Shown here: positions 505 through 51,434 of the stretch, piece by piece | Numbering within the stretch: the stretch's first letter is position 1 | Layout of the letters: each line of letters opens with the position of its first letter | Source of the DNA: Eledone cirrhosa | Taxonomy: Eukaryota | DNA: 64,000 nucleotides | Direction: 5' to 3' | Assembly: GCA_964016885.1 (NCBI GenBank) | Contig: OZ024741.1 | Span: 37,386,001-37,450,000 of the forward strand | Program-made: the position numbers and the translations under genes | Notes under the pieces: model-generated | The model's database searches: none | The model's input: the letters and a program-made list of their open reading frames with translations, nothing else | What the model was told of the DNA's origin: nothing

Positions 505-694
505 CACGATAAATTAACGGAGGCATAGGCCGTCGTTATTCCCTGTAAATAATGTGCTCAAAGGGGAAGAGATCCTGAGCCCTTTAAAATATAATATGTT
601 GAGAAGGTAAAACACCAGAGAGAGATATATAGTGCGTTATTGATAACGCACTATATATCTCTCTCTGGTGTGTTACCTTCTCAACATATTATAT
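505..694 (-). mobile_element. Short fold-back element, probable PLE terminus with inverted arm
   Basis: 52-bp arms 589-640/643-694 with one mismatch and a 2-nt loop; unpaired 84-nt tail containing GGAATAACG, also found at the end of HHR family 3. Confidence 0.55.
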
Positions 695-702
695 ATATGT
701 AT

Positions 703-1165
703 ATCATCATCATCATCATCATCAACGTTTAACGTCCGTGTTCCACGCTTGCTTGGGTTTGGACGGGGGTAGTCCCACTTGAGGCAAGAGTGATTGTCTT
801 GCTCGCATAGGACTGTCTGGCAGGTTTTCTACAGTTGGATGCCCTTCCTAACACCAACCACATTTACAGTGTGGGTCTGGGAGGTTTTTACCGTGTTGCC
901 TACACAGCCACATTACAGTGTGGACTGTGTGTTTTTTTGTCGTGACACCTACACGATCTCATTTGTTTCGGCCTGGATGGTGTGGCACCAACATAACTTT
1001 ACATAGAACGGGATGGTGTGGATGGGGGGGGGGGTATTTTGTTAGAGATGCCTACTGGCTGTAGTAGGTTTTACTATGTATTTAGGTAAGGCGGGTCTTC
1101 TCTGTTACTGAGTACCGCCAAACGTCTCGGTCCAGTGACATTGTCTTGGAGAGGTGTAAGTGTGT
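703..1165 (-). mobile_element. LINE family A, severely 5'-truncated
   Basis: (CAT)n tail, 3' UTR and last ORF codons ([16 protein letters not shown]). Confidence 0.9.
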
Positions 1166-1435
1166 AAGTATATATATGTATATATATATATATATATGTA
1201 TATATATGGAAAAAAAAAAAATATATATATATATATATGTATATATATGGAAAAAAAAAAAATATATATATATATATATGTATATATATGTATATATATA
1301 TATATATATATATATATATATATATATATATATATATATATATATATGTATATGTATATATATGTATATATATATATATATATATATATGTATATATATG
1401 TATATATATGTATATATATGTATATATATATATAT

Positions 1436-1985
1436 ATATTTATTAAAATAACAGATTAAAGTTTAAGCAAAGAATCGCTGCTTTCACCCTTAACGGGATC
1501 TTCTGAAACTAACAAAGTCAATCTGTAAACGCAGAACTGGATATTTCAAAAAACGTTGCAACCGGAGGAAGACAGGAAGACGATACTTTGGTTCGTGGTA
1601 ACGTTCGCTGGCAAAGAACGGGAAAAAACGAATAATACGTCATTAATAGAAGCGGTGAAAACAATTACGCGCAAAGACAGAACCACGTTTATGGTATAAA
1701 AGAGGTCGTAGACTAATGTTCTCTTAGGTGGTGCATAGAGACGTTCTCTGGCAATGAGCGAAAAAACGAAGATAATAAGTCATATGTGGAGCGTGGAGAA
1801 CAATAGCACGCAAAGACAAAACCACGTAAATGCTATAGCAGAAGTCGTAGACTAAAATTCTAACTAGGAGACCGAATAAATACAATACAGAAGTAATAGA
1901 AACAAATAAATACATACACGCAAACAGATACGTACATACACAAGCCCTCTTTGGATTTTAGTCTTCAATTTTAATATTATTACTA
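1436..1985. mobile_element. PLE family 1: long inverted pLTR arm (1436-~1940) plus short sense terminus (1943-1985)
   Basis: Arm is the reverse complement of ~44470-44910; terminus matches 44956-44998. Confidence 0.8.
1460..1510 (-). ncRNA. Type I hammerhead motif, family 1 (U4A core variant)
   Basis: AGTTT-CAGAAGA-T.CCC/GGG.T-GAA-AGCA/TGCT-T-AAACT on the minus strand. Confidence 0.65.
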
Positions 1986-2170
1986 TATATATATATATAT
2001 ATATGTATATATATATATATATATATATATGTATGTATATATATATATATATATGTATATATATGTGTATATATATATATATATATGTATATATATGTAT
2101 ATATATATATATATATATATGTATATATATGTATATATATATATATATGTATATATATATATATGTATAT

Positions 2171-49893: not shown

Positions 49894-49962
49894 TATATAT
49901 ATAAATATACATATATATACATATATATATATACACATATATATATACATATATATATATAT

Positions 49963-50309
49963 ATCATCATCATCATCATCATCATTTTACGTCCACTTTT
50001 CCCTGCTTGCAAGGGTGGGACGGGAACTGATTCTGGCTTGATTTCTACAGCTGGATGCCCTTCCTAACACCAACCTCATTTACACTGAGTGCTGGGTGCT
50101 TTTTTGCTGTGACACCTCCACGACTATTTTGCAGTGGAATGATAGGGACGCCAGTCCCTATCATCTCATTTCTACAGCTGAGTAAACTGGAGCAATGTGA
50201 AATAAAGTGTCTTGCTCAAGGAAACAACACATCACCCGGTCTGAGAATTGAACTCACAACCTTTCGATTGCAAGGCCAATGCTCTAACCACTAAGCCATG
50301 TGCCTCCAT
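49963..50309 (-). mobile_element. SINE, same family as 5170-5524
   Basis: Direct similarity; full head and tail. Confidence 0.88.
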
Positions 50310-50342
50310 ATATATGTATATGTATATATATATATATATATA

Positions 50343-51267
50343 TAAGTATGTATGTATACGCACATACATATATGTATATATGTATACAGACGTACAGTAG
50401 CATGCATATATATATATATATATATATATATATATATATATATATATATATATATATATATATATATATATATATATATATATATATATATATATATATA
50501 TATATATATATATATATATATATATATATATATATATATATATATATATATATATATATATACATATACATACAGGTACACATATATATATGTACGTATC
50601 AGTTTAGCGGACGTTTATTATAACGCCCGCTTTGTCCGCTTGTAAACAAACAGACAGCCTGATTTATGCCGTACGGTGTTAAGGCAACCACGTCACCTTT
50701 TTGTTCAACACTGACACAGGAACGATGTACTAGTTTCAAGCTTCTTAGCTATCATCAGCACCGTATATCCTTCTGCCAGATGGTTGAACGTTCGAAAGTA
50801 TAAACTTTCCTTATGAAAATTAACGGCTGAGCAGCCTAATTTGCATATTGAGTGAGTTAAATCGGTTAGGCATACCGAAAACGATAAGTTGTAATAGAAT
50901 GAAAACGAATTTTCATTTCTCACTCTTAGTACGGCACTTACTTAAATGTAAGTATGTATGTATACGTACATACATAAATGTATACAGACGTACAGTAGCA
51001 TGCATATATATATATATATATATACATACAGGTACACATATATATATGTACGTATTAGTTTAGCGGACGTTTATTATAACGCCCGCTTTGTCCTGACTGA
51101 TACGTACATATATATATGTGTACCTGTATGTATATATATATATATATATGCATGCTACTGTACGTCTGTATACATATATGTATGTATGTATACATACATA
51201 CTTACATTTAAGTAAGTGCCGTACTAAGAGTGAGAAATGAAATTTTGTTTCATTCTATTACAACTTA
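50343..51267. mobile_element. Retrozyme-like HHR family 6 array: ~1.3 tandem units plus inverted arm 51096-51267
   Basis: 50344-50637 recurs at 50950-51093; HHR at 50723-50763 (minus). Confidence 0.75.
50723..50763 (-). ncRNA. Minimal type I hammerhead motif, family 6
   Basis: Same fold as 35868-35908; only loop II differs. Confidence 0.85.
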
Positions 51268-51290
51268 TATATATATATATATATATATAT

Positions 51291-51434
51291 AAACAAAGAA
51301 GGTGTAGTAAGATACCAGGTGGACCATAACACACCAGAGTACTCGATACTTAGGGTAGTAGAGTGGGTAATAGGAAAAGAGTCAGGACACCGACGACTGA
51401 GCTCCGGCCGTTTGGGTCCTGACTCTTTTCCTAT
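51291..51434 (-). mobile_element. Short fold-back element related to 8956-9114
   Basis: Arms ataggaaaagagtcaggac / gtcctgactcttttcctat plus shared tail. Confidence 0.55.

Follow-up and report, generated by a model that had tools for sequence, protein, structure and literature searches.

A conserved bulged hairpin beside the fixed ends of most families of (TA)n-inserted Penelope-like elements in Eledone cirrhosa

Insertions of Penelope-like elements (PLEs) are described in the available text of Craig et al. (2021, PMC8557442) as carrying an inverted, 5'-truncated copy and a tail of 30-40 bp that is often present at one end only, the tail being ascribed to resolution by the endonuclease (EN). 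In the available passages of PMC3846280, the palindromes are ascribed to self-priming. According to the accessible text of Frangieh et al. (2024, PMC11167929), the anole Poseidon element PAc cuts and extends both target strands in vitro, and two start sites without homology to the target flank its tail. Thus, both the architecture of an inverted arm and a tail and the idea of two start sites are already published. The choice of the start sites and the one-sidedness of the tail have been open questions since the tail was first described, and this sole in vitro system mapped two starts and, in its accessible text, named no conserved signal. In this work, we describe five families of such two-armed elements found in a stretch of 64,000 nucleotides of Eledone cirrhosa (assembly GCA_964016885.1, contig OZ024741.1, positions 37,386,001 to 37,450,000), called here the window. 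It is built of long TA arrays with elements nested in them and lies in a genome of 3.0 Gb.

We propose, with a probability of roughly two in three, that these are (TA)n-targeted PLE insertions, mostly of the Hydra clade, which carry one inner and one outer end, and in which both nicked strands likely prime reverse transcription at two sites of the element RNA, each likely placed by a bulged hairpin on its 3' side. Among the parts observed, the hammerhead comes first, followed by the inner site, hairpin 1, the outer site, hairpin 2 and the start of the open reading frame (ORF). While the architecture itself is known, no description of the conserved hairpin was found in print in the literature searched. 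The original prediction, made from the letters of the window alone, had claimed that all five families share an inverted arm and a tail between two reproducible end points; this was confirmed, with its coordinates accurate to 1-4 nt. The following family-1 features illustrate the layout:

43536..44999 (+): family 1 two-armed insertion; its inverted arm, 16 nt long, begins at the inner site and is followed by a 5'-truncated sense arm that reaches the outer site
43553..43891 (+): C-terminal GIY-YIG EN part of the family-1 ORF (YIG, CxxC and CxH, no CCHH); the ORF ends at 43891
44836..44886 (+): family-1 hammerhead-like motif with a variant core; predicted cut 29 nt before the inner site
44911..44998 (+): family-1 tail, from the inner site (44910) to the outer site (44998), as originally predicted
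44913..44960 (+): family-1 bulged hairpin 1, which starts 2 nt past the inner site
1436..1986: family-1 insertion without a palindrome; its inverted arm runs 510 nt from the inner site, and of the tail it has only the distal ~44 nt
39350..39430: minimal family-1 insertion, a 47-nt inner arm and the distal tail
40429..40509: duplicate identical to 39350-39430, not an independent insertion

The 16-mer at which the family-1 inverted arms begin is present at 1436, 39350, 40429 and 43536 (+), two of these positions being 1 nt away from those predicted, and additionally at 44895 (-). The four arms do not represent four events: because 39350-39430 and 40429-40509 are 100% identical and have the same junction, only three are independent. 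The same layout was found in the other families, at positions close to those predicted, and family 3 is present in both a short form (end 6918) and a tailed form (end 26560):

501..694: family 2 two-armed insertion, tailed arm on the - strand; hairpin 1 at 554-580 (-)
6859..6918 (+): family 3 short form, which ends at the inner site; canonical hammerhead at 6860-6908
10559..11313 (-): family 3 tailed arm; hairpin at 10602-10622, hammerhead at 10645-10693
26375..26560: family 3 inverted and tailed arms; hairpin at 26497-26517 (+)
8953..9115: family 4 two-armed insertion, tailed arm on the - strand; hairpin at 9002-9027
51289..51434: family 4 variant two-armed insertion; hairpin at 51339-51364 (-)
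15993..16222: family 5 two-armed insertion; tail without the bulged hairpin
39956..40164 (-): family 5 tailed arm
39587..39771 (+): extra tailed element, absent from the original prediction, with the same hairpin at 39715-39737

The fixed position of the ends was assessed in 80 evenly spaced 10-kb stretches of the genome, which form an unbiased sample of 800 kb. In this sample, 62/71 TA-flanked 3' ends of families 1, 3, 4 and 5 lie inside two 7-nt windows and are not randomly distributed; no copy of family 2 was found in it. High-scoring segment pairs shorter than 30 nt were dropped from this count, and those shorter than 24 nt from the pairing of ends, so very short arms (e.g., 43536) are uncounted; segments split by a TA run of at least 18 nt were excluded from the pairing. 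Among 136 two-armed insertions (loci L001-L300 and the window), 126 combine an inner with an outer end, two have two inner ends, one has two outer ends, and seven have an off-site end; in the random subset, 13/15 are inner plus outer. The predicted two fixed start sites are, in this sense, each used once per insertion. A family-1 query placed upstream of both sites gave a similar picture in 30 loci, with 11 inner ends (44909-44910, plus one alignment overshoot), 17 ends at the outer site or at most 11 nt from it, and two elsewhere. The tails of families 1-5 measure 89, 88, 76, 80 and 65 nt, respectively, with a range of 65-71 nt in family 5.

The hairpin has the consensus RCUC stem, 2-nt 3' bulge, GAGY-RC, with covarying pairs. 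In families 1-4, the distance from the inner site to the start of the hairpin on its 3' side is 0-12 nt; the same holds for the outer site of families 1, 2 and 4, with a second copy 3 nt past that site; in family 1, hairpin 2 is visible only in read-through copies (L237). In a de novo screen, 1683 TA-bounded segments yielded 34 clusters with tails of at least 16 nt (16-381 nt), families 1 and 4 being merged as one through nesting. A paired NCTC..GAGN stem just past the inner junction occurs in 17 of the 29 clusters with tails of at least 66 nt, against a mean of 1.1 in shuffled sequences (maximum 6 in 2000 shuffles) and 0 in the reverse complement. Across clusters, the stem starts 0-11 nt past the junction, and 12 nt past the upstream inner site of family 3. 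In other clusters the tails measure 33-52 nt, near the published value of 30-40 nt, and a different signal may operate there. A family with a one-sided tail of 56-60 nt and no bulged hairpin is found at 6296-6744 and in L195:1978-2216, while another hairpin-bearing element occupies 29842-30090, with its hairpin at 30003-30083 and a hammerhead-like core near 29939 (-).

Thirty hairpins were compared: those of the 17 de novo clusters, the family-1 inner one, three outer ones, and nine from 6 of 31 metagenome loci (most of them partial), chosen by the basal stem and the 3' RC. With a 2-nt 3' bulge, the upper stem, which was not a selection feature, has at least two further pairs in 29/30 hairpins; with bulges of 0, 1, 3 and 4 nt, this is the case in 2, 3, 1 and 7 of 30. 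The first upper pair is formed in all 30 (C-G 17, U-A 9, A-U 2, G-U 1, U-G 1), the basal pair is G-C in 17, A-U in 11 and U-A in 2, and the bulge begins with U in 29/30 and is followed by RC in 22/30.

The ends of insertions follow this structure. TA-flanked ends lie at most 16 nt 5' of hairpin 1 or 2 in 187/188 cases in family 1, 34/34 in family 2 and 243/248 in family 4, in loci partly picked by tail or inner-end queries. The hairpins are spaced by 90, 83 and 78 nt in families 1, 2 and 4, whose tails are 89, 88 and 80 nt long. When the motif was taken first, 126/141 ends in 9 other clusters were near a hairpin, compared with 21% if ends were uniform; five of these clusters overlap families used before, and without one doubtful cluster (L284) the count is 96/111. 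The strict motif occurs 75 times in the 800 kb and the window, and 4 times in the reversed sequence.

The same structure is visible beyond this genome. Metagenome Hydra loci L395 and L411 (65-67 nt apart) and L401 carry tandem hairpins ahead of the ORF; L396 has them as well, the first degenerate and one intact. A single hairpin follows the 3' hammerhead in L396 and L406, and the 3' copy of L401 ends in TA about 5 nt before the position of hairpin 1 in its 5' copy. Among six consensus sequences of File S7 of PMC8557442, inspected by eye, the hairpin is clear in three (one at each 3' end of Hydra-2_Amil and Hydra-2_Ajap, two at the 5' end of Hydra-1_Ajap) and partial in three. In the literature searched, subscription papers, Repbase reports and figure images aside, no published description of this hairpin was found, and the passages available from PMC4209133, PMC7229834 and 10.64898/2026.07.22.740005 contain none. 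The available main text of PMC8557442 makes no mention of a hairpin, stem-loop or bulge, while the hairpin is visible in its own consensus file.

Two short motifs had been proposed as shared by the tails. GTATTGAGTAC (9002, 10602, 26507) is indeed common to families 3 and 4 and corresponds to the 3' half of the conserved hairpin. GGAATAACG lies at 534-542 (-) rather than at 530-538, and since its place differs between the two tails, the middle in family 2 and the end in family 3, it was set aside as a shared signal; its recurrence is probably due to chance, by an estimate that was not computed. A scan of the window against Rfam gave no hammerhead or matching family among the matches listed (150 of 233), only microsatellite-driven miRNA and weak tRNA-like ones.

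The Penelope identity suggested originally was borne out. The five families are not of one kind: three consist of Hydra-clade coding elements, family 2 is a tandem repeat that carries a hammerhead but no coding sequence, and family 5 is of the Neptune type and lacks the hairpin. Families 1, 3 and 4 are classed with the Hydra clade by motif features, not by phylogeny. Full copies of family 1 have one ORF of 709-713 aa with RWR, DKT, a CxCX5C linker and GIY-YIG without CCHH; the family-3 ORF spans 758 aa from stop to stop, and that of family 4 is known from broken pieces. All three contain RWR and DKT (in place of DKG) and align in the CxCX5C linker, the absence of CCHH, and CxxC and CxH around a conserved E and N, the family-4 CxxC being seen in locus L120. 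They are all inserted in (TA)n; in each, the hammerhead is followed by the inner site, the tail, the outer site, a short leader and the ATG, and read-through copies of families 3 and 4 run beyond the outer site into Hydra-kind ORFs. The Hydra-like ORFs share 40-44% identity with metagenome relatives. For a predicted model of the family-1 protein, the best PDB matches were TERT (E 6.7e-9). A profile search against PDB sequences gave 0 matches, and Pfam gave none for two full Hydra ORFs or the family-1 EN fragment, the GIY-YIG EN being identified by motif. Further Hydra-like and other PLE protein lineages outside the five families were noted in L322:3709-5956 (-), L330:5423-6565 (-), L303:665-1006, L170:2238-2858, L176:2-913 and L313:1946-2974.

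The hammerhead core is canonical in 51/53 copies of family 3. In family 4 (L116:1415-1520), 12/15 copies have a U3-A8 variant, stem II is long at about 60 nt, and positions 9060-9100 of the window are the 3' part of this hammerhead. A U3-A8 pair in the hammerhead core is a compensatory variant with activity. The hammerhead-like motif of family 1 has A at core position 4 in 132/143 copies among the matches listed and, judged by this core, is possibly inactive in spite of the abundance of the family. In family 2, a unit of 542 nt without coding sequence is repeated in tandem (L157), each unit with a type I hammerhead (core canonical in 35/39). No ORF with PLE motifs was found in its 30 loci, and no RNA data set with its unit was among those listed; by its features it is probably a non-LTR retrozyme. 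Family 5 has DKG, a CX4CxxC linker and GIY-YIG at its C-terminus; in L324 and L321, the EN end runs on without a break to the 3' end of family 5. The L324 ORFs match GIY-YIG in Pfam at 32.2 bits (cut-off 22.6) and RVT_1 at 28.5, below its cut-off of 29.6. By such motif features, again not by phylogeny, family 5 is a Neptune-type PLE, and neither a hammerhead nor a bulged hairpin was found in its 3' end.

Comparison of the arms points to the source of each insertion. In all five families, arms within one insertion are closer to each other than arms across insertions, and minority alleles are common to both arms above chance in families 1, 2, 4 and 5, family 3 having no usable site. A minority allele with 81 exact inner-end matches genome-wide, against 2316 for the common one (81/2397), is present on the other arm in 17/20 informative loci (60 loci in total, 19 uninformative for the second arm), and a tail variant outside the palindrome accompanies it in 11/24 versus 0/22. 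Both arms derive from one source haplotype. The origin of an insertion from two RNAs of different loci, hinted at by discordant arms, was rejected because the sharing of rare alleles between arms is far above chance; the few pairs that disagree are compatible with later mutation among ~2300 common-allele copies together with query selection. In families 2-4, most inner arms extend 40-65 nt from the inner site before they stop, and in family 5 they extend 123-154 nt.

According to the mechanism we propose, the element protein, possibly in two copies, would bind each hairpin, and its GIY-YIG domain would nick each (TA)n strand. Each target 3' end would then pair with whichever TA(T) is closest, 0-12 nt 5' of the hairpin, and the two cDNAs would be joined head to head through short overlaps; among simple joints, 58/87 overlap by at least 1 nt in the alignment. 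What lies between the two start sites would become the tail, so that the hairpin spacing would determine how long it is. As hairpin 2 is never copied at the outer end, a start there would require that the transcript be tandem or circular. Family 2 would likely borrow a Hydra protein via the same two hairpins, and family 5 attains the same architecture without the bulged hairpin. The anole PLE offers support by analogy, since it cuts and extends both strands and its two internal starts bracket the tail (available text of PMC11167929).

Several explanations compete with this one. Palindromes could be assembly or long-read fold-back artefacts, and such structures do trouble assemblies (available text of PMC8557442); however, the ends are fixed at two sites, the arms diverge by 0.4-3.8%, and independent short reads carry the junctions. 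In Illumina reads of other runs, TA-type loose ends number 3086/2716 at the inner and 7907/8471 at the outer site of family 4, and 1762/2302 and 576/778 at those of family 1, in restriction-site-associated DNA sequencing (RAD-seq) runs, whose read counts are not usable as proportions. Opposite-strand joints are present in both families as well. Because these reads show both TA loose ends and strand-switch joints, the architecture is not an artefact, and this explanation, already refuted, has practically no chance of being right. The version originally put forward, in which the outer site is fixed and the inner one set only by TA microhomology, draws on a real match: alternating TA at inner junctions has a mean of 3.1 nt, compared with 1.3 in a positional null (21 hairpin-positive clusters). 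Nevertheless, the match is insufficient, as the outer sites have it too (TAT, ATAT, TA and TAT in families 1-4), with 2-5 nt at inner and outer junctions alike, and the ends follow the hairpin. Longer TA tracts, 13-35 nt into the family-1 tail, took only 1/175 TA-flanked ends (all loci), so microhomology seems to select the base, not the region; as a full account it is largely refuted and scarcely credible. It is also very unlikely that the two sites are true RNA 3' ends, produced by hammerhead cleavage or other processing and used in ordinary 3'-end target-primed reverse transcription. Such ends would agree with families 1-4, in all of which a hammerhead or its variant precedes the inner site, and with the anole RNA ends, which map to the start sites (Fig. 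S2 of PMC11167929, according to its text). On the other hand, the predicted cuts are not at the inner site but 15, 20, 29 and ~180 nt ahead of it (families 3, 4, 1 and 2), the conserved hairpin 3' of each site would be lost by cutting, and ribozyme mutants left in vitro insertion unchanged (available text of PMC11167929).

The strongest competitor, which we consider possible but unlikely, is that one cDNA primed at the outer site folds back and copies itself, the EN then resolving the product at the inner site and the hairpin serving as a single-stranded DNA signal. Self-priming and EN resolution have been suggested in PMC3846280 and PMC8557442 (available parts), and the tail is needed for recognition by the D. 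virilis EN, as cited in the available text of PMC11167929. Many joints are near-perfect palindromes, both arms share rare alleles, and family-4 joints are more symmetric than shuffles, which favours some fold-back or a shared stall there. However, coupled stopping of the two arms is above chance in family 4 only, with symmetry not above chance in families 1, 2, 3 and 5. The tailed arm stops within the tail in 14/126 insertions (12 of 41 in family 1, one each in families 4 and 5), without a palindrome, and fold-back of one cDNA cannot yield these insertions because the tailed arm never reaches the inner site. Moreover, the inner arm can be full-length, 3.2 kb against a tailed arm of <140 nt (L091, L093), and extension of both strands from internal RNA sites was obtained in vitro (available text of PMC11167929). 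Family-4 insertions also recur as palindromes of ~196 nt (L104, L105, L108, L111, L121, L122, L124, L127, L128 and others), which may be a self-propagating unit, although their centres vary and sit on one self-complementary 4-mer.

Priming of both strands at two hairpin-placed sites also has to face observations that weigh against it. By the de novo screen, the stem is absent in 12/29 of the longer-tailed clusters and in 5/5 of those with tails <66 nt, although the architecture is still present, and the TA match is equally strong in 28 stem-negative clusters (mean 3.2 vs 1.2 in the null; 0/10000 null draws reach the observed mean in either cluster set). Family 5 has the same architecture without the bulged hairpin, and the family-3 outer site has only a plain 4-bp hairpin; the hairpin is not universal to PLE tails. 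The relation between spacing and tail length comes from three families only and is 5 nt off in family 2. Predicted basal-stem pairing is <0.3 in 8/30 contexts, and the polarity evidence for single-stranded sense RNA, G-U versus A-C, is thin (4 vs 1). The arms overlap in 112/126 insertions, for which a single RNA read once needs strand displacement, fold-back or a second repeat, and 31/36 family-4 joints are symmetric within 10 nt, against a shuffled mean of 23.7, as fold-back predicts. In addition, the anole start site is reported as non-homologous to its target, unlike the families described here (available text of PMC11167929). From its position and covariation, we infer that the motif would act in RNA, bind the protein and set the start.

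In its widest form, for which we see even chances, the proposal is that an undescribed RNA module, composed of a 4-bp stem, a 2-nt bulge and a free upper stem, is present in duplicate in the Hydra-clade PLEs of cnidarians, echinoderms and molluscs. Each module would dock one RT-EN (reverse transcriptase and EN) unit and fix a start 0-12 nt upstream, leading to obligate, structure-programmed twin priming with a tail equal to the dock spacing. Any RNA with two such hairpins, e.g., the family-2 retrozyme, could then be written into (TA)n from both strands.

Besides the short two-armed elements, the TA arrays of the window host SINE-like repeats headed by a tRNA and pieces of RTE-like LINEs. The latter belong to two subfamilies (75% alike), and their dense copies occupy 1984-4829, 13366-15851, 16602-19677, 21527-25255, 28475-34447, 36133-38658 and 48418-49820, with open frames of 1075 aa at 22028-25255 (-) and 940 aa at 16556-19378 (+). 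A LINE-like piece at 40181-40312 and 40973-41635 has a 132-nt, 100% inverted copy across a TA array and encloses the duplicated family-1 mini-insertion. A sixth nested-palindrome family with internal TA-like tracts is present at 35160-36057 and 50604-51265, and also in L092:1909-2214.

A covarying hairpin beside the starts defines exact, testable mutations and opens the question of how the PLE tail arises to direct testing. It is a candidate cis signal for retrozyme mobilisation and is useful in annotating Hydra elements whose ORFs escape Pfam. PLE reverse transcriptases are the nearest relatives of telomerase; therefore, an RNA hairpin that would fix where templating begins bears on the origin of template-positioning RNAs.

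Among known mechanisms, L1 twin priming is similar in that the element RNA is primed from both strands of the target and microhomology links the resulting cDNAs head to head. The L1 arms do not overlap, and the site where its second primer anneals varies, whereas the second site described here is fixed and used by nearly every two-armed copy, and the arms usually overlap.

Among PLEs, the Neptune-type elements with an EN (available text of PMC8557442) resemble family 5 in DKG, the CX4CxxC linker, the C-terminal GIY-YIG, microsatellite targets and a one-sided tail; family 5 differs from them in its 65-71 nt tail, and neither a hammerhead nor the bulged hairpin was found in its 3' end. Family 2 resembles the non-LTR retrozymes (available parts of Cervera and de la Pena 2020, PMC7229834, and of Li et al. 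2026, 10.64898/2026.07.22.740005), which are likewise non-coding tandem repeats with a type I hammerhead per unit, and whose mobilisation by PLEs was proposed in both papers. It is distinguished by its 542-nt unit, by both Hydra-type hairpins and by the same inner and outer ends as in the coding families, that is, by a candidate cis signal that is unnamed in the available parts of those papers.

Families 1, 3 and 4 agree with the Hydra clade, as described in the available text of PMC8557442, in a single RT-EN ORF with RW[KR], DKT, the CxCX5C linker and GIY-YIG without CCHH, as well as in (TA)n targets, a predicted hammerhead or hammerhead-like motif near the 3' end, an inverted 5'-truncated arm and a one-sided tail. 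In contrast to that description, the tails of families 1-4 are 76-89 nt rather than 30-40 nt, full copies exceed 3 kb, and the hammerhead cores of families 1 and 4 are variant. With the anole PAc (available text of PMC11167929), our families share two fixed starts downstream of a hammerhead that bracket the tail, known here from genomic ends only, and AT-rich targets; in PAc, both strands are extended and RNA 3' of the start is needed. The PAc starts lie inside the ORF, in an AC-rich stem loop without target homology, whereas those described here precede the ORF, match the target by 2-5 nt of TA and mostly stand ahead of a separate, conserved bulged hairpin.

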